DNA from: a virus
Taxonomy: Duplodnaviria > Heunggongvirae > Uroviricota > Caudoviricetes
Direction: 5' to 3' (one strand)
Virus record (IMG/VR): IMGVR_UViG_2671180283_000029
Location: 1-23,822 of that record
DNA length: 23,822 nt
Positions 1-23,822 of this stretch are shown one piece after another. A program made the translations under genes and the position numbers. Position 1 is the first letter of the stretch; each line of letters opens with the position of its first letter. The notes beneath the pieces are model-generated. The model searched no databases and was not told the DNA's origin. It saw only the letters and a list, made by a program, of their open reading frames with translations.

Positions 1-291
1 ATGACTCACACAGTTACACGCCTTTTGCCAGAGGCATTTGAACGACTGGCAGCAATCAAAGCCAAATACCCTGATATGAAGCATACGGCGCTTGTTGGAG
101 AGCTTTTAAAAGAGTCGGTAACCCTTACCCCTTTTGATAACGTTAAGGGCGTTGCAGAAGGTTCTAAGGCCATCAGAATCACAACGAACCAACTGGAACT
201 ACTCAAAGCACAGTCCGCAGTAGCAGGTTGCTCAATGATTCAAGTGTTAAGTACCAAGGTTCATCAACTGGCGGATAAATTGGGGGTTTAA
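1..291 (+). CDS. hypothetical protein; possibly ribbon-helix-helix-like DNA-binding protein; may be 5'-truncated by the window edge
   Basis: 96-aa ORF starting at window position 1; two segments (TRLLPEAFERLAAIKAK and KAIRITTNQLELLKAQSAVAGCSMIQVL) loosely resemble RHH repeats; no upstream sequence available to confirm the start. Confidence 0.35.
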   Translation: MTHTVTRLLPEAFERLAAIKAKYPDMKHTALVGELLKESVTLTPFDNVKGVAEGSKAIRITTNQLELLKAQSAVAGCSMIQVLSTKVHQLADKLGV

Positions 292-521
292 TGCTACCTA
301 GGTACAAATTTTATAAACTGGCATCACATCTAATCAGACAAGATACCCGCTCAAAAGAATATGAAGATGTTACGCTTGACCGTAACAAGAAAAGACTAAA
401 ACCACATCAAATTGAGCAGTTACGCCATGAATTAAAGTCACTGGATATCGAGCTTGATTATAGTGACCCGACTCAATTTAAACGGGCTTATGAACTCATT
501 AAGAATTGGGGGGAAGAATGA
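291..521 (+). CDS. hypothetical protein (76 aa)
   Basis: ORF in compact same-strand array; its stop overlaps the next ATG (ATGA at 518-521). Confidence 0.4.
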   Translation: MLPRYKFYKLASHLIRQDTRSKEYEDVTLDRNKKRLKPHQIEQLRHELKSLDIELDYSDPTQFKRAYELIKNWGEE

Positions 522-727
522 AGAAAGTATTCACCCTCAAACTTAAAACAGATAAAGCCTTCAAATATTTTCGAAATCTAATTGATGTACATAATGGATG
601 GGGTGACATTGATAATGATGACATCTATCTGATTATGCAATCCCCATCTTTCACGTTAAAAACCTCAGTAACAAAAAGCTGGTTTAGCCAATTTCATAGT
701 GAGATGGGTTTAATAGTCTCAGACTAA
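518..727 (+). CDS. hypothetical protein (69 aa)
   Basis: ATG at 518 preceded by GGGGGAAG SD; the track start at 506 is TTG; translationally coupled to the upstream ORF. Confidence 0.45.
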   Translation: MKKVFTLKLKTDKAFKYFRNLIDVHNGWGDIDNDDIYLIMQSPSFTLKTSVTKSWFSQFHSEMGLIVSD

Positions 728-894
728 AGGCAAAAAACGGTTTTACCCACTCTCAGACGCTCTCAATCGCATTCTAACGCAAAAAACCATCTTATTTTAG
801 GGTATGTTACACCCCTACAGGCTACCCCTGAAAAAGACTGTTTAGCTCGTTACAGAGCGATTGAGGAGGTCTGGTAAAAAGGAGATTTTAGGAA

Positions 895-1191
895 ATGAAC
901 AATTACCCAATGCAAGTTATGGTTGACCAAGAAACTATGAATTGGCTTAATGACCTGAACAGGTCGGGATTTAATATCTATTTCATGCATTGTTTTGAAG
1001 CATCAACGTATATTGACAAGCATATAATCAACGAAATTAAACTTGGTGACTTTGTTCACAAACTGGAAGTAACAGACCCAGACTACAAGAGATTTATCAC
1101 AAGCGAATGCAACCGACTTGATTTAAGCCCGGAGCAATTATTGAAGCTGAATGTATTCTTGACATTAAACCCTTACAGTGAGGTGATGTAA
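895..1191 (+). CDS. hypothetical protein (98 aa)
   Basis: ORF with AAGGAG SD 8 nt upstream of the ATG. Confidence 0.5.
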   Translation: MNNYPMQVMVDQETMNWLNDLNRSGFNIYFMHCFEASTYIDKHIINEIKLGDFVHKLEVTDPDYKRFITSECNRLDLSPEQLLKLNVFLTLNPYSEVM

Positions 1192-1268
1192 TGACGCTCG
1201 TTATTTTATGGACAGCTTTAGGTTTATTATGTGGTTGCCTGATTGCTAACGCAGCTAACAGAAATTGA
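1191..1268 (+). CDS. possible small hydrophobic peptide (25 aa, MTLVILWTALGLLCGCLIANAANRN)
   Basis: ATG at 1191 overlaps the last base of the upstream TAA stop; strongly hydrophobic; below the ORF-track size cutoff; could be spurious. Confidence 0.25.
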   Translation: MTLVILWTALGLLCGCLIANAANRN

Positions 1269-1292
1269 TGTTATCAGATTGTTAAAAAGCTG

Positions 1293-1321
1293 TTGACAAA
1301 TAACCTTAAGCATGACATAAT
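1293..1321 (+). promoter_or_regulatory. near-consensus sigma70-type promoter
   Basis: TTGACA at 1293-1298, 17-nt spacer, CATAAT at 1316-1321, reading rightward into a ~380-nt non-coding leader. Confidence 0.5.
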
Positions 1322-1490
1322 TTTAATTATAGGGAAGAGCAATTCTTCCTAAAATCATATTTTCAATAATCCGATGGATGGATATTCTGAGTTGGAAAGG
1401 TGCAATGCTTTTCGTCATGGCCTTTCAGTTTAGTCTGAGAGGCTATCTCAAAAAGTCTTTGTTCATTCGTTATTGAATCCTTACAGCTTT

Positions 1491-1520
1491 GCCCTAATCA
1501 TGAGTTAGGGCGTTTTCTTT
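1491..1520 (+). terminator. intrinsic terminator-like hairpin in leader
   Basis: GCCCTAA / TTAGGGC 7-bp stem, 7-nt loop, followed by GTTTTCTTT. Confidence 0.4.
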
Positions 1521-1581
1521 AAGAGTTTTAAGCAGAGCTTTTAAAGAAAGTTTTTCCTGAAACTTCGTTAACGTAACCTCC

Positions 1582-1617
1582 AAAGCCCTTCACAGATTAT
1601 GTTTAGGGCTTTTCTTA
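1582..1617 (+). terminator. second hairpin with T-rich tail in leader (terminator or attenuator)
   Basis: AAAGCCCT / AGGGCTTT 8-bp stem with 15-nt loop followed by TCTT; weaker than the first hairpin. Confidence 0.3.
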
Positions 1618-1711
1618 ATAGAGCATCTTTAATCAATCGTTAAGTCATCTTCTAAGTGTATTGGCGTTGAAGGTGCTCTATTAAGAAATAACCACTTAGA
1701 GGAAAATTATA

Positions 1712-2422
1712 ATGACAAACGATTTATATATTAACGGCAGAAAGATTGATAGCTTCGGGGACTGGTCACCACAGACTGAACATCCAGCTATCGCTATTCA
1801 GCGTAAAGAACACGATGAAAGAATTAAGCTTGAGCAAGAAATCCGAATGTCACCAAAGGAAATTACCTTTGTGGCTCCTGAGCCTCAAGAAATGCCTGAT
1901 ATCTGCAAAAGTGAAGCACTATTTAATCTTGAGCGTGAATATTACCCACAGTTAAAAGAACAGCGCCTTAGACTAGATGACGCTTACAGCAAAGTTACCC
2001 TGATGCAATCAGCTATTGAGCCGTCAGAATTTGAGATTCAGGATGAATTGTCACAGAAACCATTTGTCTATTACCAATACGAAGACAATGATGGTTTTGG
2101 TATTTATCCAGAAAACATCCCAGCCGCGATTAGTAGTCTTCCTGAGGGACATCGAATTGTGAAGATGGTTAAGGCATCAAGAGGTGCTGGTCAGTTTATT
2201 TACATGACCAATAAGAGCGATGAAGAACTCTGTGAACTTGCCAGGCAGAACATCTTGGCATCACGTAACAAGCAACTTGAAAATGTTAAGTTGTGTCTCT
2301 TAAGAGAGCTTCAGGCTATGAAAGACCTTATTTCTGCATATGAAACGCAGAAGAAGATTGCTATGCAGGCTGATATTGAGCAGTTAGTGAAGATTTCAAC
2401 GAAGTACGCAAAGGTGCTTTAA
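1712..2422 (+). CDS. hypothetical protein (236 aa), acidic with a coiled-coil-like C-terminus
   Basis: ORF with GAGGAAA SD upstream of the ATG; no recognisable motif. Confidence 0.55.
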   Translation: MTNDLYINGRKIDSFGDWSPQTEHPAIAIQRKEHDERIKLEQEIRMSPKEITFVAPEPQEMPDICKSEALFNLEREYYPQLKEQRLRLDDAYSKVTLMQSAIEPSEFEIQDELSQKPFVYYQYEDNDGFGIYPENIPAAISSLPEGHRIVKMVKASRGAGQFIYMTNKSDEELCELARQNILASRNKQLENVKLCLLRELQAMKDLISAYETQKKIAMQADIEQLVKISTKYAKVL

Positions 2423-2445
2423 CTATGAATTAAAAGAGGTGATTA

Positions 2446-2655
2446 ATGTTTGAAGAACGTTTAGAGACTATTCGGTCTGTTTGTGAAAACTTAAAGTTAC
2501 AAGCCAATCCAGCCTTAAGAATTAAAAACAAACGTCAAGTTATCACCTCACACAAACCAAAAACACGCAAGATTCCAAAGTGGTGTATCGACCGTATCCC
2601 TTCTGATGCCCAAATCATAGGTGAAACGGAATTACATTATCTTGTCAGACATTAA
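2446..2655 (+). CDS. hypothetical basic protein (69 aa)
   Basis: ORF with AGAGGTG SD 4 nt upstream of the ATG. Confidence 0.4.
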   Translation: MFEERLETIRSVCENLKLQANPALRIKNKRQVITSHKPKTRKIPKWCIDRIPSDAQIIGETELHYLVRH

Positions 2656-2733
2656 AAAAGAATTGGTTGGGTAAAAATCTACGGGAGAGATTATCGAGTG
2701 ACATCGGTAGTTTCTCCCTTTTTTGTATATGTG

Positions 2734-2797
2734 CTACGTGAAATCTGTAAAGCTAATACCCACACTGAATAATAGAATTTACGTAGCTCACGCTTAA
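2734..2797. repeat. conserved 64-bp intergenic element, copy A (CTACGTGAA-N11-TAATACCCACAC-N15-ACGTAGCTCACGCTTAA)
   Basis: Three conserved blocks with identical 11- and 15-nt spacings, matched by copy B at 4979-5042; lies directly upstream of the 2816 gene. Confidence 0.6.
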
Positions 2798-2815
2798 AGA
2801 GGTGAAATATGAACA

Positions 2816-4966
2816 ATGGCACAGTTTAAAGTTGATGATTTTCTGATTGAGTTAAGTTTTAACTCTCAGAAAGTTTTAAAAGGCTTGGAAAAAGCCGAGA
2901 AACAAACGATGCAAATCGCATCAAGAATTGAGAAACGACTAAATAAGGCATTCAGAGTTAACCCTACGCCTTTAAATGATTCTCTCAAACTAATGGAAAA
3001 GAATGTCGATAAAACTGTTTCCAAGATTGAGCAGCGTCTTAAAAACACTAGAGCGTTTAAGATTAAAACGGAAATTGATGACACTTTAAAGCCACTTAGA
3101 CAACCAAGACAGCCACGAATTAGCGGCAACAGAGCAATCACAGCGGCTTACTCAGCTAATATGTCTAAGCTAAAAGGCTTTGACCCTATTTTGCAGAAAT
3201 ACATCAAATCTCAGTTTTACGGGCTATCTGCTAAAGCTGGGTCAATGGATTCTTCAAAATTCAATGAGAAGCTGACTCAGTTAAATGCTTCAGTCAGAGA
3301 AGCAATTGCTAAAGCTAAAGGTCATACATCCACCAGCATTAACAATACAAGCGACGCATTTAATAATCTTGCAAGCAATGCAATCAAGTTATCTGGTGCA
3401 TTTTACTCTGTGATGGGTGCTCTTAACGCTTACAAGGCCATCATGAATGCAGGTCTTAAACGAGATTCCGCACAGAGAGCCGCTAAGTTTGTACTTGGTG
3501 ATAAAGCATCTGAGGCTGAAACATTTATCAGGGGACTGGCTGACAAGACAGGTCTTAATATCTCTGAAGGGCTATCAAGCTACGCTAAGTTTGCAGCAGG
3601 TGCTCAGGGTTCTATGTCACAGGAACAGACACAGGAGCTATTTGGTAATGCAACGGCTATGAGTCGCTTAATGGGGCTTTCTAACGATGAGCTAAACGGC
3701 ATTTTGAAAGCATTTGAGCAGATGGCTTCTAAGGGCAAGATTCAGGCTGAAGAGCTTCGTGGGCAGTTAGGTGACCGTATGGCAGGGGCATTTAAGCTAT
3801 TCGCTGAAGCATTGGGTATGACTGCTACAGAGCTTGATAAAGCGATGAAAGACGGGAAGATTTTAAGTAGTGATACTCTCCCTAAAGTCGCTAAACAGAT
3901 GGGCTTGATGATTGATAAAGCGGGTGGCTGGGCTGAAGTCGCTAAGAGCACTCAGACAGCTTTAGGGAAACTGGCTAACAACTGGGATGATACGATGGTG
4001 AAAATCTTCTCAGGTTCACAGGATGAGTTAAACGGCTTCTTATCCAGCATGAGTAGCTTGCTTAGTGAAATGGGTATGAGTTCTTCTATCGCTGGTGATG
4101 CTATCGGTGGACTTATCGACATGCTTAAAGCTGGTGTAGATGACATCCGTATCTTTAACAATCACCTTGAAGGCTGGATTCTACAGATTAAGAAGACCTA
4201 TTACAGCCTTGATGACACTAAACGAAAACTACTTGATGAAGTCGGTGATGGTTTTATCAATTTTGTCAAAGGTCTTGCTATAGCGTTATCTGCAAAGACG
4301 CTATTCAGTGCTACTACAGGGGTTATGAACCTGACAAGAGCAATCACAACGTTAGGTACAAGAGCTAATCAGGTGGCTGGTCAGGTAGCTACTGGTAAAG
4401 GTGTAGCTGGTGGTGTAGGTAGTGCTCTTGCAATTGGTTATGCTGATGACGGTTATGAAACAGCGTTAGCATTAGCTTCAATGATTCCACAAATCAGAGG
4501 CGTCACTCTTGGTTTATATGCATTGAAGAAAGCACTGGATTTTATGAATCAGGAAGTAGTCAAAAACGCTAATATGCATCCATCTGGGGTAGGTGTGGGT
4601 AGTGACTTTAATCCTGTGTATTCTGGTGACCCTAATAAACCGAATATGATTAACGAAGGATGGGGTAGAATTTTTAGTTCAATGGGTGAATTGTTTAACA
4701 ATGCCACAATGAATATTGCAAGATTCAATCATCCAGAATTAATTACCATGAAACAAGATGCATCATTAACGAGCACTGACATCCAAAATCTAAGAGATGA
4801 AATTAGTGCTTTAAGTAAGCGTATTCAGGAGCCTGTGAAAGTTTCACTTGGTGGTGAAGTTGCCATTAAACCAGATGAAACCAGCTTTATGACCTTTAGC
4901 AGTAATATCTACGACCAATATGCAGAAGCTACGTTATTAAGTTCATCATTCCCAGAAGATGATTGA
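2816..4966 (+). CDS. phage tail tape-measure-like protein (716 aa)
   Basis: Motif GKIQAEELRGQLGDRMAGAFKLFAEALGMTATELDKAMKDGKILSSDTLPKVAKQMG resembles the conserved tape-measure domain; helical N-terminus and Gly/Ala-rich hydrophobic segments (about residues 480-560), typical of TMPs. Confidence 0.7.
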   Translation: MAQFKVDDFLIELSFNSQKVLKGLEKAEKQTMQIASRIEKRLNKAFRVNPTPLNDSLKLMEKNVDKTVSKIEQRLKNTRAFKIKTEIDDTLKPLRQPRQPRISGNRAITAAYSANMSKLKGFDPILQKYIKSQFYGLSAKAGSMDSSKFNEKLTQLNASVREAIAKAKGHTSTSINNTSDAFNNLASNAIKLSGAFYSVMGALNAYKAIMNAGLKRDSAQRAAKFVLGDKASEAETFIRGLADKTGLNISEGLSSYAKFAAGAQGSMSQEQTQELFGNATAMSRLMGLSNDELNGILKAFEQMASKGKIQAEELRGQLGDRMAGAFKLFAEALGMTATELDKAMKDGKILSSDTLPKVAKQMGLMIDKAGGWAEVAKSTQTALGKLANNWDDTMVKIFSGSQDELNGFLSSMSSLLSEMGMSSSIAGDAIGGLIDMLKAGVDDIRIFNNHLEGWILQIKKTYYSLDDTKRKLLDEVGDGFINFVKGLAIALSAKTLFSATTGVMNLTRAITTLGTRANQVAGQVATGKGVAGGVGSALAIGYADDGYETALALASMIPQIRGVTLGLYALKKALDFMNQEVVKNANMHPSGVGVGSDFNPVYSGDPNKPNMINEGWGRIFSSMGELFNNATMNIARFNHPELITMKQDASLTSTDIQNLRDEISALSKRIQEPVKVSLGGEVAIKPDETSFMTFSSNIYDQYAEATLLSSSFPEDD

Positions 4967-4978
4967 TTTAACGGTGTT

Positions 4979-5042
4979 CTACGTGAATAAAGCAAAGTTA
5001 ATACCCACACCAAAAATTATTTTTCACGTAGCTCACGCTTAA
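4979..5042. repeat. conserved 64-bp intergenic element, copy B
   Basis: Same three blocks and same spacings as copy A; lies between the TMP-like gene stop and the 5123 gene. Confidence 0.6.
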
Positions 5043-5122
5043 CAGAGAAAATACATACATATCAAAGGTTTGGTTAAAAATGATTAAAATACACTAAGCC
5101 TTTGAAATCAAAGGAGAATTTA

Positions 5123-5911
5123 ATGATTTACTCTAATCAGATTCGTTACAGTGGCAAAGATGGCATCTATTTCCACTTAAGAGATAATGTAGATGCCTTC
5201 TTAACCTTATCAGCAACTGAGAACATGGAATTTGATAGCCCTATGCAGGTGACTACACAGAATATGCAATCGGGGCAAACCGTCACAGATAATGTGCAAA
5301 GAGCACCCAGAACAATCACTATTAGTGGTGTCGTTGTAGTTGGCTATGAAGGGAGCTTATTATTAACTCGTCAGGGTCAATTAGTAGAAAACTTCATCGA
5401 CACTCTGGAAAACTGGCGTGACCAGAAGCAAATTATTTCGGTCATCTGTAAAGATGGAATTAAAATTGATGATTCCATTATTACGAGTTTTAAAGCCTCT
5501 AAAGATGTTGGAATTTCAAATGGTCTAAGAATCCAGCTAACTTTTCAGGAAATTAACTTTAAAGCGATTGTAGGACAAACTGATATTTCAGCAGCAACTG
5601 GAAAGACCGCTACTACAAATGACGGTGGTGTGACCAGTAAGAAGAATGCAGGTAACGTGACCACTGAACGCAATAACGCGCCTATGCTATCGTGCAAAGA
5701 ATTAATGAATATTAGCGATGTATCCGGTTACGCTCCAGCTATCAGAAATGATATTCTCGATGCTCAGATTAAATGTAATAAGGCTTGGAAGCTGGACTAT
5801 TCAGACTTAACAGAAGCTGAAAAAACCAACGTCACCAATGCTAACAGTAACGCTGGTCGGGTAGCTTCAAAGCTTAAAAAGTACTCAGTGAATCCTAACA
5901 AAAAATACTAA
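5123..5911 (+). CDS. hypothetical protein (262 aa); position after the TMP-like gene suggests a tail-associated role, unproven
   Basis: ATG at 5123 with AAGGAG SD (track start at 5102 lacks an SD); Thr/Asn/Gly-rich C-terminal half; 3' end overlaps the convergent recombinase gene by 4 nt. Confidence 0.5.
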
Positions 5912-7431
5912 ATCTCTACTACATCAACATCTATTAAACCCCTCTCAGTGACTTCAGAAAGCGACTGTATAGCCTCTGTAACGTCCTCTGAGGGGTTTTC
6001 TGTTATTGATAGGGTGATTGACTTACTATTGTGAAAAGTCACTTTACAGCGACGTTTAGCAGTATTTAAAACGACCTCTTTAACAGCACTTTTGATTATC
6101 AGTTGTGCTTCAATCCTTCCCGCCTTTGTAGTCAAGTCACAATCGGACAAACAACCCACATCAATAGATTTAAGGCGTTGTGTCTCCTTCTCGATATCAG
6201 CATCAACCTGTGATAGCTCACCTTTTAACTGTTTTAGTTTGCTGGTAATAGCTGACAAATCTTCAATTTCAAGTGATAGCTGTACCAGCTTTTCAATATT
6301 GCTTGAGATGTGTTCACGGTGTAGCCTCAACATATCTATGGTATTCGTCGTATCGCTATCAAATCGGTCAAGACGAGATAGCAGAGTAAGCAATGTACCA
6401 TCGGTTTGCTTACGTGAAAGTCCTTTAGCACTACAACGGTTTTCATTACGAAGAGGACAACGATAAATCCCGCTTCTTGTATCGCTAAAGCCTGTGATAA
6501 TCAGAGCATGACCACATTCAGAACAACGGATAACACCTTTGAAAAGATTCACAGCCATTGGCTTATCTGAAGCAGGTTTTCTACCGTAACGAGCATATGA
6601 TAGTTGCTGGACTTTGTAGAATGTTGTTTCATCTATAATTGCAGGATAATAATCAGCTATCTCTTCACAGCCTTTAGGTGTGAAGTAACCAATTACAGAG
6701 CGATTTTTCAGAAGGTCTTGTACTGAGGTTTGACCAAATGAACCCGCTTTATATTGGTTAAGCGTCTGGTGACCTTCATCATTAAGAGTCCTGACAATCT
6801 CCCAGATAGACTTACCCTCTAACCGTAGCTGAAAGCACCTCTTCACAGTTTCTACCTTCTCAGGTATCACAGAGAAGCTTTTACGGTCATCATTAAGCTT
6901 AAGCCATGCAGGACAACGTTTAGAAATCTTGATACCTTCAGAGATGAGTTCTTTTTTACGGTTCCATGCAGCTTGTATACGCTCAGACTTCCTCAAACTC
7001 TCCTCATGCGACCGCTGCATTATCAGAATGCTTTTAATCAGAGCTAACGGGTCTTTAAGAGATTCTCGTGTGTAATGTTCACCATCGGACAAGGTGACTA
7101 CATCTACACCAGAGCGAAGAATGTTTCGTAATAGCTCACTTGCTCGGTCTACGTTCTGGCGTGACAAACGGTCAAGAGATTCTATCAAGAGCGTATCACC
7201 AGCTTTAACAAGCCCTTTCTCGATAGCGGTTAAGAAGTCACCTAAGCCACCTTTCAAGTGCTTACCAGTGAATCCACTCACACCTAAATCACGGAAGGAT
7301 AAATCTTGGTCAAGGTAGTACTCAGGATGAGCCTTAAGCCAATCAGTGACCATCTTAGATTGTCGGCGTAATGAATCACCTCGGGATTGCTTCTCAGATG
7401 AAAACCTGATGTAAGAAATGGCACGTTTCAT
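5908..7431 (-). CDS. large serine recombinase (serine integrase), 507 aa
   Basis: N-terminal resolvase-type catalytic domain (YIRFSSEKQ with candidate nucleophilic Ser, [11 protein letters not shown]), then recombinase domain, Cys-rich zinc-ribbon-like segment (CSECGH...[11 protein letters not shown]) and C-terminal coiled coil; GAGGTG SD; sits at the element edge next to the junction. Confidence 0.9.
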
Positions 7432-7483
7432 TGTTCACCTCAAAACTGATGCCTAGATTGTATCGCTTTAGGTGGTGTATTTA

Positions 7484-7921
7484 AACGTGTCTAATAAAAA
7501 TCACCCGATTAACGCCGCGCTGATGTAAACCGCGATTAAGCGTTTGTTCCTCTTCCCCTTTGGCGAAAAACTGTGGATGGCGGACTTCCACACCATAATT
7601 AAATTCGCCAGGGAGAGAATCGAGAAAATGCCAAAGCGCAGGCAGCTCCCGTGGGCCGAATGTGGCAGGCAGTTGCAGCCAGTATTGCCCAATGCGCGGA
7701 GCCAACGGTGACATGCGGGTCAAAAATTCAGTCACTAAATCATCGCAATGTCGTAATGCTGCCTGATGCGAAATGGTCGCCGGAAACTTAAAACAGAAGC
7801 GGAAGTCATCTGTGGTCTGTTCACGCCAGCGCAGGACAACCTCGGGTTTCGGCAGGGCGTAAAGCGTGGTGTTGCCCTCCACGCAGTTAACATGACGGGT
7901 ATTAAGGATTAACTTACTGAT
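7484..7921 (-). pseudogene. yecE: internal fragment of a chromosomal DUF72-family gene (yecE-like), truncated at both ends
   Basis: Reading frame open from 7921 to 7484 with no credible start (track start is GTG); the protein matches my recollection of E. coli YecE across its central ~130 residues, with the C-terminal tail (IFIRHV) diverging near 7500 and the 5' end running into the integrase 3' end; GC visibly higher than the left element. Identity is from memory, not a search. Confidence 0.55.
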
Positions 7922-9222
7922 TTTAATAAGCCTCTGGTGTCACTTTGGTGACTATGGGGCATCATTGGGACATAATCTGTCAGCTTCTGATTCAGCATTG
8001 CGATCTGTTCTGCATTGCTGTCAGTCATCCATGCTCCGTATACATTGAATACCATCTGGGCACTTGCATGGCCCATCTGGCTGGCAATGAAGCTTGGGTT
8101 TGCTCCGGCAGATAATGACCAGCACGCATAAGTGTGTCGTGACTGGTATGCCTTTCGATGCCTGATCCCTGCACGCTTAATGGCTGTTTCCCATGAGTCA
8201 CCTACAGAATCGACTTTGTAGACAAAACCTACCTGTTCGCTTTTTCTAACCACTTGAGGGTTAAACACGAAAGTACATTCATGGTTCACTGAACGTCCAT
8301 ATTCACGTAGTTGCACCTTGATGTTGTACTGCTTACCCAGTCTTGTCATTTCAGCCTGATTTTTCAGGACACTGATAGCGGGCTGGATAAGGTGCACAAC
8401 CCTGTTTGTGCTTGCTTCAGTTTTCGGTAGAGTGAACTCACCAAGTTTCGTATAATTGCGCCTGATGGTAATTGTTCCTGCCTTCAGATCGATATCTTCC
8501 CAGGCCAGGGAGACCAGTTCACCGTGACGCATTCCTGTGTACACAGCCAATGACCACAGGTTTTTCGTCTGCTGATGTCGGCAAGCATCTATCAGGCGAA
8601 TAAATTCGTCACGAGTTAGCGGATCTGGCTCTGCCCTGGCTCTTTTAAGAGGCTTAATTCCCTGGAAGGGATTTGCTTCTAAGTAACCGTGATCTGCAGC
8701 AAACTGAAACATTCCAGCGATTGTCGTCATGTAATAATTTACAGTAACGACGCTCCGTCCTTTTGCTGCTGCTTTGTTTTTCGTTGAATTCTGATACCCG
8801 GTCAGCAAATCTTTCCTGATATACAGCAATTCCTCTTTGGTTACCGATGACACCAGTCTACTGCCTCCAATTTTCGGAACCATCGTTCTTGCAACGGATT
8901 CATAGCGATTGAATGCATTTGCAGAGATTTCCATTCGTTTCAGATCCAGCCACTTTTCTTCAAGTTTCTTCACCGTAATTTCTTTTTTACTTACCCCAAA
9001 AGCCTGAAGGTTGGGGGAGTCAGGGAACTGTGCAGCATAATCAAAGCTTCCTGTGCGGATGGCAAAACATACTGATGTCCGCAGTTCCCCGGCGATCTTC
9101 CTGTTCTTGGCAGTGTCAGGGACACCAAGATTTTCCCTGACACGTTTACCTTTAAAATTAAACCAGATGCGTAATGTGCCGCCGTGGTTTTCGACGCCTG
9201 TTGGATATTTGACTTTATCCAT
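7909..9222 (-). CDS. int: phage tyrosine integrase (437 aa)
   Basis: C-terminal catalytic region with Arg/His/Tyr pattern (GMRHGELVSL, SRHTYACW, MGHAS, VYGAW); GGAGG SD; adjacent to the chromosomal gene remnant and followed by an excisionase-like gene. Confidence 0.9.
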   Translation of the reverse strand: MDKVKYPTGVENHGGTLRIWFNFKGKRVRENLGVPDTAKNRKIAGELRTSVCFAIRTGSFDYAAQFPDSPNLQAFGVSKKEITVKKLEEKWLDLKRMEISANAFNRYESVARTMVPKIGGSRLVSSVTKEELLYIRKDLLTGYQNSTKNKAAAKGRSVVTVNYYMTTIAGMFQFAADHGYLEANPFQGIKPLKRARAEPDPLTRDEFIRLIDACRHQQTKNLWSLAVYTGMRHGELVSLAWEDIDLKAGTITIRRNYTKLGEFTLPKTEASTNRVVHLIQPAISVLKNQAEMTRLGKQYNIKVQLREYGRSVNHECTFVFNPQVVRKSEQVGFVYKVDSVGDSWETAIKRAGIRHRKAYQSRHTYACWSLSAGANPSFIASQMGHASAQMVFNVYGAWMTDSNAEQIAMLNQKLTDYVPMMPHSHQSDTRGLLKSVS

Positions 9223-10359: not shown

Positions 10360-11187
10360 TTATTTAACCTGGATAAATGGTGTATTGGCACCGCTGGTCA
10401 TGTATTGCGGCAGCGTGCCATTCCATTTATTGATGGCTTCCAGCTCCATAACACCGGGGTTCTGACGCAGAGCTTCACCGCGTAAACGAATAGCATCGGC
10501 TTCAGCCTGGGCTTTTGTGCGAATCGCATCAGCCTGTCCGGCAGCTTCCGCGCGCAACATGTTGGCTTCCGCTTCGCGCTGTTTTACTTCCTGCTCGCGT
10601 TGCAGAGTTTTCTGGTTCGCCGTGACTTTGGCATTAATGCTGTCGATAACAGTAGGCGGGTACTCCGGCTTACCCACATATGAGAGGCTTATTACCTGAA
10701 TACCGATGGGCGTCATTTCTTCCTGAATGTCTTTAAGAGCTGCATCCAGCAGCTCAGACTTGCCGCCGTCGATAAATTTGTCGGTGGTCATTTTGCTGGC
10801 CAGTCGGTTGAGTGCGTCGGCTATCTTCTGGCGCAGGTCGGTGTCGGTAATGTCGTCCACGCCTTTGCGGTAGGTCTGAAAGACTGTGGTAACTTTGGAT
10901 GGATCAACCTTGTAGGCTACTCCGATGTGGTAACCAATGGTTGTTCCATCGCTCATCTGGAAACTGAATGGATCATCGTAGGTCTTCATCTGCTTAAAGG
11001 TCGGGAAGATATAAACTTCAGTGTTCCAGCCTGTCCAGTAGCGACCAACACCGACCACTTCACCGACGCCTTTGTCGTCGCCAAGTTTGTTGACTTTGAT
11101 GCCCACATTACCAGGCTCAACACGATCACAACCGACAAGGCCAATGGCAGGCAGAACAATGGCTAAAGAAAAAATAATTTTTTTCAT
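10360..11187 (-). CDS. SPFH/band-7 (prohibitin/stomatin-like) domain lipoprotein, 275 aa
   Basis: Signal peptide with lipobox LVGC (MKKIIFSLAIVLPAIGLVGC); band-7-like core; C-terminal Ala/Glu/Arg/Gln-rich coiled coil typical of SPFH oligomerisation tails; AAGGA SD; ATGA overlap with the upstream small gene. Confidence 0.75.
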   Translation of the reverse strand: MKKIIFSLAIVLPAIGLVGCDRVEPGNVGIKVNKLGDDKGVGEVVGVGRYWTGWNTEVYIFPTFKQMKTYDDPFSFQMSDGTTIGYHIGVAYKVDPSKVTTVFQTYRKGVDDITDTDLRQKIADALNRLASKMTTDKFIDGGKSELLDAALKDIQEEMTPIGIQVISLSYVGKPEYPPTVIDSINAKVTANQKTLQREQEVKQREAEANMLRAEAAGQADAIRTKAQAEADAIRLRGEALRQNPGVMELEAINKWNGTLPQYMTSGANTPFIQVK

Positions 11188-21306: not shown

Positions 21307-22302
21307 GTGACCGTGAGAGCACTACTGACCCCTGAAATTGCCCCGCGTATGGGGATCGTATTGTTCAGGCCCGGTTCAGAGCTGATGCCCCTGTTTATGC
21401 AGGGGCGTGTCCTGCTGGAGCCTGAGCCGGAACGTTATTCATCTTTTGCCAGTGGTGCCGTTCCGGCGGCATCACAACCGCTGGCGGATGATCCTGCCGT
21501 TCGGGCCGTGTTCCGCAATGAGGCAGTGATCCGTCGTGCTGGTGGCGTGGAATGTCTTGAAAGCTGGTTACTTCGTGAAAAGGGCTGTCAGTGGCCTCAT
21601 TCCGACTGGCACAGCGAGAACATGACCACAATGCGACACGCTCCGGGCGCAATCCGTCTGTGCTGGCACTGCGATAACCAGCTGCGCGATCAGTTCACGG
21701 AACGGCTGGAATCAATGGCAACGGATAACTGTGCCCGCTGGGTGTTGTCTGTTGTGCGTCGGGATCTCGGTTTTGATGACAGTCACGTTGTGACAATGCC
21801 GGAACTGTGCTGGTGGCTGGTTCGTAATGATCTGGCGGATGCCTTACCGGAAAGTGCAGCCCGTAAGGCACTGAGATTACCGAAGCCTGTTGTGCCGTCT
21901 GTCACCCGGGAGAGTGACCTTGTGCCTTCGGTTCCGGCCACCAGCATCATCCAGAATAAAGCGAAAAAGGTGCTGGCGCTGAAAGTGGATCCGGAGTCGC
22001 CGGAGTCTTTTATGTTACGCCCAAAACGTCGCCGCTGGGTTAACGAAAAGTACACGCGCTGGGTTAAGACGCAGCCGTGTGCATGTTGTGGAAAGCCTGC
22101 TGATGATCCCCACCACCTGATAGGCCACGGTCAGGGGGGAATGGGTACAAAAGCGCATGACCTCTTCGTGCTGCCTTTGTGCAGAAAGCATCACGACGAG
22201 CTGCATGCGGATACCGTGGCATTTGAAGAGAAGTATGGCTCCCAGCTGGAGCTGATATTTCGTTTTATCGATCGTGCGCTGGCAATAGGCGTGCTGGCCT
22301 GA
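21307..22302 (+). CDS. DUF968-like protein with C-terminal HNH-like Cys/His motif (331 aa)
   Basis: C-terminal CACCGKPADDPHHLIGHGQGGMGTKAHDLFVLPLCRKHHDELH resembles an HNH/zinc-binding motif; GTG start with weak SD, so the true start may be internal. Confidence 0.5.
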   Translation: MTVRALLTPEIAPRMGIVLFRPGSELMPLFMQGRVLLEPEPERYSSFASGAVPAASQPLADDPAVRAVFRNEAVIRRAGGVECLESWLLREKGCQWPHSDWHSENMTTMRHAPGAIRLCWHCDNQLRDQFTERLESMATDNCARWVLSVVRRDLGFDDSHVVTMPELCWWLVRNDLADALPESAARKALRLPKPVVPSVTRESDLVPSVPATSIIQNKAKKVLALKVDPESPESFMLRPKRRRWVNEKYTRWVKTQPCACCGKPADDPHHLIGHGQGGMGTKAHDLFVLPLCRKHHDELHADTVAFEEKYGSQLELIFRFIDRALAIGVLA

Positions 22303-22319
22303 TTTTGTGGAGAAAGTTG

Positions 22320-22691
22320 ATGCGTGATATTCAAATGGTTCTTGAACGTTGGGGGGCATGGGTGGCAAATAATCACGAGGATGTGGAATGGTCATCTGTT
22401 GCTGCAGGTTTTAAGGGATTAATTCCTTCGAAAGTAAAATCCCGCCCGCAATGTAGCGATGACGATGGCCTGATCATTAGCTCTGCGATGACAGTTCTTA
22501 AGAAAAAGGAACCGTATCAATACGAATTACTGGAAATGTATTATGTGTATGGGGTTACATTACGGGTGTTGGGGGTAAAACTGGGGATATCACTTAATCA
22601 GGTTGTTATCAGACTGCAGAAAGCTGAAGGGTTTATTGACGGTTGTCTGGCAATGTTGGGGGTATCTTTAGAAATTGATTGTTACATATAG
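22320..22691 (+). CDS. late-gene antiterminator Q-like protein
   Basis: N-terminus MRDIQMVLERWGAW matches my recollection of Q proteins of lambdoid/Stx-type phages; ATG at 22320 with GGAGA SD; position after the replication/nin region. Confidence 0.6.
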   Translation: MRDIQMVLERWGAWVANNHEDVEWSSVAAGFKGLIPSKVKSRPQCSDDDGLIISSAMTVLKKKEPYQYELLEMYYVYGVTLRVLGVKLGISLNQVVIRLQKAEGFIDGCLAMLGVSLEIDCYI

Positions 22692-22766
22692 TAATAAATT
22701 CAATCAAAGTAAATAATCATATTTTATTATAACCTCCTGATGATACCTGTTCATTGGGAGATTATT

Positions 22767-23384
22767 ATGGATAAAAATGTAGAGCATGTATTAGTTGATG
22801 CAATTGAAAATAAGCAATCTTTAACAGTCGTTTACTTAGGAGGGAGCCAGCCCGGAACATTAAGGAATATTTCTCCGATTAGTATAAATGGGGATAAATT
22901 GCGGGCAAGATGCCATAGTTCTGGAGCAGTAAAGGTTTTCAATCTTGGGAAAATACAGTTACCCAGTGACTCCTGCGCGGTATCTATGCACTATGGAGAT
23001 TTAGAAGTTAAAGCTTATGAGACGATGCAGAGCGTAAATGACAACTTTCATGCCCTTTATCCTGAAGGACGATGGGGTGTTGATTTTAATGAGCATCGCT
23101 TTGCTTTATTTGATTTTTTTAAAAACGGGAAACAAAAAAAAACGGCATTTATGGCAATTGAGTTCAGGGAAAGAGATGAAGAGAAAATAATAACAGGTGT
23201 AACAATTGATATTGGTATATCTGGAACAGTGATTTCTGAGAAGTCCCGAATCCCAAAAAGACGACCATGGGTAGTGGTTGGTCCCGAACACGGAGAATAC
23301 AGTACTTATTCAACTTTGGACAAGGCTGCTACAGCGTTTTTTGAGAGGCTTTCGTTGATAGCATCCGGCCTGGAAGATAATTGA
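22767..23384 (+). CDS. hypothetical protein (205 aa), AT-rich moron downstream of Q
   Basis: ATG at 22767 with GGGAG SD (track start at 22740 lacks one); visibly lower GC than the flanking Q and replication genes; AT-rich upstream region 22692-22766; no recognisable motif. Confidence 0.55.
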   Translation: MDKNVEHVLVDAIENKQSLTVVYLGGSQPGTLRNISPISINGDKLRARCHSSGAVKVFNLGKIQLPSDSCAVSMHYGDLEVKAYETMQSVNDNFHALYPEGRWGVDFNEHRFALFDFFKNGKQKKTAFMAIEFRERDEEKIITGVTIDIGISGTVISEKSRIPKRRPWVVVGPEHGEYSTYSTLDKAATAFFERLSLIASGLEDN

Positions 23385-23514
23385 TTTTATGTTTGGTATT
23401 CAGAGTTCGCCGTGCTTAAGAAAGTCAAGATTCTAAAAATACTGAATGAGCTACTTGTGTTATAACAAAAATGCTATTAGTGTGTTAAGAGTGGTTACTT
23501 CGCCACACAACTTA

Positions 23515-23540
23515 AACCCGCCACTGAGCGGGTTTTTTGT
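23515..23540 (+). terminator. intrinsic (rho-independent) terminator, possibly tR'-like
   Basis: AACCCGC-CACTGA-GCGGGTT stem-loop followed by a T-run. Confidence 0.6.
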
Positions 23541-23659
23541 ACCTGTAAACTTGGTGCAGTACAGTAAACACGCTGGTGGTCGTGAATACTGACTTTTTAT
23601 CTTGCTGGCTTTTTAGACAAGAGTTATTGGTATGTCATGTTAACCAGAAGGGAAAAAGA

Positions 23660-23822
23660 CATGCTAAAACAGCAAGATATGACCGAAACCGCCAGAGTGG
23701 TGTTTAATGAATTGAGCGTCACCGAACCGGCGACAGTCGGGGAGATTGCGCAGAATACTTACCTTTCACGCGAACGCTGCCAGTTAATACTGACCCAGCT
23801 GGTTATGGCGGGTCTGGCAGAC
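23660..23822 (+). CDS. hypothetical protein, 3'-partial (runs off the window end)
   Basis: ATG at 23660 preceded by a GAAGGG SD-like sequence; reading frame open to the window end (MLKQQDMTETARVVFNELSVTEPATVGEIAQNTYLSRERCQLILTQLVMAGLAD); not in the track because it has no stop. Confidence 0.3.

Follow-up and report, generated by a model that had tools for sequence, protein, structure and literature searches.

What kind of gene occupies the gap between an antiterminator gene Q and the terminator that follows it, and from which promoter would it be read? The question is raised by a 23,822-nt stretch of a caudoviral record (IMGVR_UViG_2671180283_000029, positions 1 to 23,822; hereafter the window), which is part of an Escherichia coli lambdoid prophage. 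The region concerned (22692-23540) holds a single plus-strand gene for a protein of 205 amino acids (aa), hereafter the cargo gene (22767-23384), which a preliminary description had called a moron encoding a protein with no recognisable motif, at the locus where Shiga toxin (Stx) phages carry their cargo. The analysis showed that the encoded protein contains a DriD-type WYL domain, and that the gene lies upstream of the probable late promoter of a Q21-family Q rather than at the stx locus. The interpretation we prefer, at somewhat less than an even chance, is that the gene, placed between Q and its promoter-terminator unit pR'-tR', encodes a two-domain, non-enzymatic accessory protein of phage-host conflict that binds single-stranded DNA (ssDNA).

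The frame of the cargo gene is open from 22740 to 23384. Its start was set at ATG 22767, which is also the start in the NCBI annotation and corresponds to the first residue of the homologous proteins; the ATG at 22740 was ruled out, being out of frame in a second allele of the gene and used neither by NCBI nor by the homologues. The open reading frame (ORF) described earlier is thus present with its start confirmed, and so are its Shine-Dalgarno (SD) sequence (GGGAG, 22756-22760, 6 nt ahead of the ATG) and the AT-rich upstream region, a 75-nt leader between Q and the gene (22692-22766) with a GC content of 0.24.

To the statement that the protein carries no recognisable motif, the profile and structure comparisons gave a different answer. 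An AF2 model built on a 45-sequence alignment (pLDDT 85) divided the protein into an N-terminal WYL domain (residues 1-66), a poorly predicted linker (67-86), and an alpha-beta-alpha C-terminal domain (87-205), and the first of these has the WYL fold, an Sm/SH3-like five-stranded barrel lying against the N-terminal helix. A profile search of 1.8 billion cluster representatives returned 953 relatives (608 below 1e-10), most of them stand-alone proteins of 190-200 aa. WYL was matched at E <= 0.01 by 39 of 107 family members (best, 4.8e-8), and the family profile matched DriD in the PDB (E 3e-4) through the motif Y-x-GGS-x-PG-x-x-RE-x-x-P. DriD is a chromosomal activator of Caulobacter crescentus with a winged helix-turn-helix (wHTH)-WYL-WCX architecture that senses ssDNA; its Tyr168, Ser172, and Arg178 hydrogen-bond the ssDNA backbone, whereas Arg204 and Trp206 contact the bases (PMC9186387). 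In the alignment these residues correspond to Y23, S27, R33, K56, and F58 of the cargo protein, of which the first four are invariant in the family and the fifth is nearly so. The likeness to DriD comprises the loop motif and the phosphate-contacting Tyr, Ser, and Arg. Some copies are labelled "WYL domain-containing protein" by the NCBI pipeline, so the domain call itself is not new.

The remainder of the protein differs from that of the characterised WYL regulators. The cargo protein starts at WYL helix alpha-1, and no helix-turn-helix (HTH) was found with Pfam or in the model. The C-terminal domain runs in the order helix, three strands, poorly predicted insert, two strands, and long helix (alpha-beta3-insert-beta2-alpha), which is not the beta-alpha-beta2-alpha-beta-alpha order of the WCX domain. 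Searches of Pfam and the PDB with its sequence returned nothing, and its structural matches were weak and unstable between models. The viral structure library BFVD gave nothing at E <= 0.001. Conservation in the C-terminal domain falls on basic or aromatic residues (W103, K119, G121, P167, and an RPW motif at 166-168), and neither a conserved acidic or catalytic motif nor a membrane segment was found in it. The protein matches phrog_8498 over its full length (E 9.2e-126 over residues 1-205 of 205), a group with no assigned function, and matches to phage structural, lysis, or known regulatory families, any of which would have spoken against the earlier view, did not appear. In PADLOC-DB 2.0 the protein was matched, weakly, by two models of generic Cas-associated WYL proteins (E 0.0014 and 0.0065) and by nothing else. 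Besides lacking the HTH and WCX domains of DriD, the protein differs from it in being encoded as cargo of phages and mobile elements instead of as a chromosomal regulator. CapW, BrxR, and PafBC are likewise WYL regulators, of defence or DNA damage, that bind DNA and are encoded beside the operon they control, whereas the cargo protein has neither a DNA-binding output domain nor a conserved neighbour. To WYL1, the Cas13d accessory protein with a ribbon-helix-helix domain that binds single-stranded RNA (ssRNA), the likeness is weaker, and there is no CRISPR context.

Next, the relation of the cargo gene to Q was considered. The gene directly upstream (22320-22691, plus strand, with the NCBI start) is indeed an antiterminator, as had been proposed, and belongs to the Q21 family (PF06530, E 1.5e-47); it is related to Q21 in PDB entries 6jnx and 6p18 (E 5e-10). 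Residues 1-45 are identical to those of the quuD-type Q of a related prophage (L015), whereas the remainder, including the HTH region, is a different allele of low GC content, which places a mosaic junction within Q. This remainder was seen only together with the cargo gene. Among 5426 complete E. coli genomes, the allele of the 3' half of Q was found in 75 (52 at >=99% and 23 at 80-90%), and a more sensitive search located the cargo gene in 74, in two alleles, one carried by 52 genomes (nucleotide identity >=99%) and the other by 22 (about 78%). Given these nearly equal counts and their matching split, the Q allele and the gene appear to travel and diverge together, and there may be a functional tie between them. 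The lower GC content claimed for the gene holds against the replication genes (0.395, compared with 0.547 for the helicase gene and 0.565 for the DUF968 gene) but not against Q, the 3' half of which is equally low (0.389; GC3 is 0.395 for Q and 0.32 for the cargo gene). The low-GC block therefore consists of the 3' part of Q plus the gene, not of the gene alone; equally AT-rich stretches occur elsewhere in the window.

The sequences that follow the cargo gene most plausibly form the promoter/terminator block on which this Q acts (about 23455-23540, plus strand). The putative pR' (23455-23483) consists of a -35-like hexamer (TTGTGT, 23455-60), a 17-bp spacer, and a -10-like hexamer (TAGTGT, 23478-83). 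It is followed by a 30-nt block found with Q21-family Q (GTTAAGAGTGGTTACTTCGCCACACAACTT, 23484-23513), which would be the initial transcribed region, and by an intrinsic terminator (23514-23538) with an 8-bp stem (23514-23521/23528-23535) and a T-run. The strong terminator noted previously is thus real; it escaped the consensus scanner because part of the T-run pairs with AAA, and the stretch 23484-23545 folds with -20.1 kcal/mol (z -3.3). Promoter-like block, 30-mer, and terminator follow the cargo in the window and in nine related loci, whatever cargo intervenes. TAnnnT stands at the equivalent position in all ten loci compared, and 16-17 bp ahead of it there is a -35-like hexamer, which in some loci is a good one (TTTACA, TTTACG). 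The 30-mer is identical in 7 loci; L016 departs from it by a single substitution and the two allele-B loci by several. In several prophages the cargo abuts or overlaps the stop codon of Q, so that the late promoter cannot sit directly after Q there. The -35/spacer segment TTGTGTTATAACAAAAA after the cargo gene is also better conserved between the two alleles than is the leader.

Comparison with other phages supported this assignment. In the GenBank record of phage 21, the late control module is contained within 85 bp directly after Q. Its annotated elements are -35 and -10 hexamers whose spacer holds two Q-binding sites of 8 bp, a start site, a pause element, and a terminator; the sigma-dependent pause element lies at +2 to +8 and the terminator ends near +48. 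The window resembles phage 21 in the family of Q, in a spacer specific to the type of Q, and in a short terminated leader RNA (predicted length about 49 nt, as against about 48 nt), and differs in that the phage 21 promoter begins 7 nt past Q whereas 790 nt of cargo intervene in the window, where the elements are putative. The spacers fall into at least four sequence types, which track four types of the HTH region of Q, as is expected from the Q-binding site in the spacer of phage 21. SfV and Ayreon, which carry an unrelated, Q82-like Q of 250 aa, share with the window only the part from the terminator onward and have a different promoter upstream (TTGCAT-17-TAAGAT); the terminator is annotated in both. 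Because they share the terminator but not the block, the block is specific to the Q21-type family. When phage 21 was used as guide, several registers could be drawn for the pause element and the Q-binding element in the conserved block, none of them convincing, and neither was placed. We regard the assignment of this block as the pR'-tR' of this Q as a well-supported inference from comparative sequence, and the terminator that follows the gene is most probably the shared tR', at which transcripts reading on from Q and the cargo gene would stop as well.

Two observations concern the terminator itself. In Ayreon (L012), two terminator copies (1813-1856 and 2492-2530) flank two small ORFs downstream of the Q82-type late promoter, which looks like cargo inserted after tR' with duplication of the terminator. 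An Rfam scan gave nothing above threshold; a sub-threshold match to STnc130, an enterobacterial small RNA (30 bits, gathering threshold 55), lies on the minus strand at 23506-23642 and overlaps the terminator and the conserved region beyond.

The position of the gene upstream of pR' does not fit the proposal that it occupies the cargo locus of Stx phages. There, stx lies beyond the promoter and terminator, a small ORF, a methylase, and tRNAs. In an O157:H7 Stx2 prophage (L016) the order is Q, two minus-strand uncharacterised genes, the block, a small ORF, a DNA methyltransferase, tRNA-Ile/Arg/Arg, and stx2AB. In an O113:H21 Stx2a prophage (L024), Q is followed by the cargo gene (second allele), the block, a small ORF, the methylase, tRNAs, and stx2AB; since this prophage carries both, there are two separate cargo slots, and a single phage can have both of them occupied. 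The two are alike in lying between Q and the lysis genes. They differ in that stx is downstream of pR'-tR', and hence readable by Q-modified polymerase, whereas the cargo gene is upstream of the putative pR'. As had been stated, neither stx nor tRNA genes are present in the part of the window that remains past the gene; the window stops 282 nt past the terminator. NZ_CP148357 contains bases 22200-23822 at 100% identity, and in that genome the sequence beyond the window end continues with a small ORF, a DNA methyltransferase, tRNA-Ile/Arg/Arg, and then the lysis genes, the position of stx being held by a pseudogene remnant only. The first ORF past the terminator (23637-23822, plus strand) is truncated by the window end and encodes a small winged-helix-like protein (phrog_331, E 1.4e-31).

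The Q-to-pR' slot is used by other genes as well. At least eight other gene sets, each on the minus strand, occupy it in related prophages (among them L002, L003, L004, L013, L016, L026, and L028). They encode a 404-aa protein plus an NA37-family nucleoid-associated-like partner; three small proteins; in two further sets, single proteins of 339 aa and 148 aa; in two more, pairs of 179 and 343 aa and of 237 and 147 aa; a methyltransferase-like protein that has an FSGCGG motif, next to one of 582 aa; and, in L015, an ompC/nmpC-like porin between the quuD-type Q and the conserved block. The porin genes lc of PA-2 and nmpC of DLP12 are lysogenic-conversion cargo situated by Q, and L015 shows that the physical slot is that of the cargo gene. 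Their products are unrelated to the cargo protein, and their orientation is opposite to that of the cargo gene, which stands on the plus strand behind Q; being on the minus strand, the porin and the other cargo need promoters of their own. When nine alternative cargo proteins from five of the sets were scanned, no PADLOC model was matched, and the sole Pfam match was one NA37 nucleoid-associated domain. With no known defence match among these nine proteins, the slot is a cheap place to seek new functions. On a simple reading, cargo at this site lies between the DNA-recognition region of the regulator and its binding site, which disfavours recombination between them. The gap is perhaps sheltered because recombination there would part a regulator from its co-adapted binding site, and it may thus be a protected cargo niche with a pool of uncharacterised conflict genes.

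The distribution of the gene agrees with the earlier view of variable, horizontally moving cargo, in that 74 of the 5426 genomes carry it and the slot has the alternative occupants described above. In the genomes that carry it, the gene is always on the plus strand and just after Q. The entire region 22692-23540 was found in 51 of the genomes, and about 1200 matched only its last 45-95 nt, a count for the conserved block that mixes Q-specific with terminator-only matches; an exact-pattern scan of the species genomes gave 5 loci only. The gene family is under purifying selection: between the two E. coli alleles the ratio of nonsynonymous to synonymous substitution rates was 0.22 for the gene as a whole; the WYL domain gave 0.13 and the C-terminal domain 0.21, and the linker evolves freely. 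A run of nine A residues inside the gene (23134-23142, plus strand), which encodes KQKK, is a frameshift site in some copies. A 1-nt insertion at this run splits the gene in one locus (L031), two database fragments (P0003 and P0006) are frameshifted and break at it, and another genome has a nonsense codon at K119. The run could serve slippage-prone on/off switching or reflect decay.

How the cargo gene is expressed was approached from its leader. A consensus scan listed no sigma-70-like promoter on the plus strand ahead of the start codon, and the terminator after the gene is common to phages with other types of Q, so the description of the gene as a moron in the sense of an independent unit was not upheld. 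The variable presence and deviant composition of a moron it does show: it was found in 74 of the 5426 genomes, its slot holds other cargo elsewhere, and its GC content is 0.395 against 0.55-0.57 for the replication genes. As far as can be judged from the arrangement of the sequence, the gene probably stands last in the early-rightward (Q) transcript and is transcribed at a low level; it would be read together with Q, and its transcripts would end at tR'. A predicted leader hairpin (22729-22765, plus strand) pairs the SD, contained in its 3' arm, with CCUCC further upstream, and a U-rich stretch follows. It folds with -13.8 kcal/mol (z -2.7) in the window and with -15.7 kcal/mol (z -3.6 and -4.4) in the two loci of allele B. 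The hairpin is predicted in both alleles despite their differing 3'-arm sequence and was flagged as terminator-like by the scan; according to the folding model it could act as a translational throttle or a weak terminator. By burying the ribosome-binding site, the conserved hairpin would damp the expression of the gene. No N-like antiterminator was found among the prophage candidates scanned. The leader also contains, on the minus strand and facing Q, a strong antisense promoter-like site (TGAACA-16-TATAAT, 10/12; 22726-22753) that recalls paQ of lambda and phage 21. The second allele has a weaker version (TGAACG ... TACTGT), and the site could be a chance product of AT-rich DNA.

The proposed function follows the analogy with DriD. 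The WYL domain would bind short ssDNA independently of sequence, the ligand being ssDNA exposed in phage replication, induction, or DNA damage; in a protein with no output or catalytic domain, the action would be exerted by binding, either through shielding or sequestering of ssDNA or through recruitment of a partner via the C-terminal domain. Such a protein would have an accessory role in phage-host or phage-phage conflict. About a dozen loci of distant homologues were inspected, and the relatives have no conserved neighbour and occupy accessory slots throughout. Besides the immunity regions and defence-like settings discussed below, a longer fused homologue lies upstream of a terminase, another occupies the end of a phage genome, one is carried by an integrative element that also has conjugation genes, and one by a 209-kb cyanophage. 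These accessory contexts, the DriD-type pocket, and the lack of an output or catalytic domain together fit a small ssDNA-binding conflict protein.

Several observations weigh against this interpretation. The cargo protein alone scores 16.5 bits with PF13280, below the gathering threshold of 21.8. R176, Y192, and R207 of DriD are not kept (T31, A47, and N59 in the cargo protein), so that the Tyr of the WYL motif itself is Ala. The clamp that linker and WCX domain of DriD place on the ssDNA is missing from the cargo protein, and WYL domains have other ligands, namely ssRNA for WYL1 and, in one report, c-di-GMP. The hexamers of the putative pR' are weak (6/12 to consensus), its assignment being made by comparison. 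The frameshifted and nonsense copies indicate that the gene is dispensable in some hosts. The occurrence of homologues in the immunity region of other prophages fits expression in the lysogen better than lytic expression.

This last point leads to an unlikely but serious alternative, in which the gene encodes a prophage defence or superinfection-exclusion protein made in the lysogen, the WYL domain sensing ssDNA of an incoming phage and the C-terminal domain blocking the phage or the cell as in abortive infection. Homologues adjoin a cI-like repressor or an integrase in other temperate phages (L006, L021, and PY3), and the chromosomal settings are, in this small sample, defence-island-like, one homologue lying beside an OLD-like ATPase-nuclease and an HD phosphohydrolase (L020) and another beside an AAA_13 ATPase and an Mrr-STAND protein (L010). 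The same slot also holds a porin in another prophage, and the related prophage porin Lc has a classical exclusion function. Against this, no promoter for expression in the lysogen was found, the gene being co-oriented 75 nt behind Q; the C-terminal domain has the properties given above, with neither catalytic or conserved acidic motif nor membrane segment; PADLOC gave no more than a weak WYL match; and a homologue is present in the 209-kb cyanophage. Co-orientation with Q and the lack of a promoter of its own would instead suit a counter-defence protein made with Q in lytic growth, which would act as a sponge. It would take up short ssDNA that otherwise lifts the repression of host defences under WYL control (CapW-CBASS, BrxR-BREX) or activates RecA, and would so blunt the alarm of the host. 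ssDNA has been shown to be the cue for CapW and BrxR (PMC11662680; PMC13622015), the ssDNA-contacting residues of the cargo protein are those of the host sensors with no output domain attached, and the family occurs on the integrative element with conjugation genes and in the large phage. We nevertheless consider this improbable: no phage-encoded WYL decoy was found in the literature searched, homologues occur in the defence-island-like chromosomal contexts, and the leader hairpin suggests a low expression that is poor for a stoichiometric sponge. The extension of the idea to the whole family, as a phage and mobile-element counter-measure in which an output-less copy of the host ssDNA sensor is made with Q and soaks up the alarm signal of WYL-controlled immunity or of the DNA-damage response, is more speculative and is judged slightly less probable again.

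The remaining explanations concern the neighbourhood of the gene. Its place as the final gene of the early-right operon, where the helicase gene, the DUF968/HNH gene, and Q precede it, together with the predicted ssDNA binding, would agree with a replication or recombination accessory protein acting on ssDNA intermediates, as lambda NinB/Orf; with the gene in only 1.4% of E. coli genomes, missing from related prophages, and located in immunity or accessory slots in other phages, such a role is very unlikely. We give even less credence to a pR' placed directly after Q in the AT-rich leader, by which the gene would be the coding part of a constitutive pR'-to-tR' transcript and would be expressed in the lysogen with or without Q. 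The pR' of phage 21 does begin 7 nt past Q, the leader has -10-like hexamers (TATTAT and TATAAC at 22725-22733), and the sole strong terminator of the region follows the gene. However, the scan gave no plus-strand promoter for the leader ahead of the start codon, every locus has the Q-family-specific block past the gene, even where cargo overlaps the Q stop codon, and TTGTGTTATAACAAAAA is conserved better than the leader between the two alleles. An accessory ssDNA-binding protein of phage-host conflict, encoded upstream of pR', is thus the interpretation that we retain, with the reservations given above.

The gene order of the prophage is mostly that of the prophage in NZ_CP148357, namely integrase, excisionase, LexA-like repressor, replication genes, DUF968/HNH gene, and Q. 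Its early-left region contains a minus-strand gene for an SPFH/Band 7 protein (10360-11187; PF01145, E 2.9e-31), for which PADLOC gave no match. Next to the lambdoid integrase gene (7909-9222), the left 7.4 kb (window 1-7882) is the end of a second, AT-rich phage-like element, in which genes for a tape measure protein (2816-4966) and a Dit-like tail protein (5102-5911) are followed, on the minus strand, by that of a large serine recombinase (5908-7431). This element is inserted in a DUF72 gene (remnant at 7481-7882); in NZ_CP148357 the DUF72 gene is intact and the element is absent.

In the papers searched, no match was found for the architecture (a DriD-type WYL domain joined to a C-terminal domain, with no HTH or WCX), the size of the family, the strict pairing with a Q allele, or the slot upstream of the late promoter; this literature contained neither a phage-encoded HTH-less WYL protein nor the Q-to-pR' gap as a general hotspot. 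For lambdoid and Stx prophages, the results tell apart two easily confused slots, one upstream of the putative pR' and the other downstream of tR', and it is the slot that decides whether expression of the cargo can depend on Q. For the WYL family, the domain is known mainly as the ligand-sensing part of transcription factors for DNA-damage and anti-phage responses, and the present family (953 cluster representatives) is a widespread stand-alone version that has no DNA-binding output and is borne by phages and mobile elements. If the proposed function is true, the ssDNA cue would be used, or intercepted, from the phage side too.

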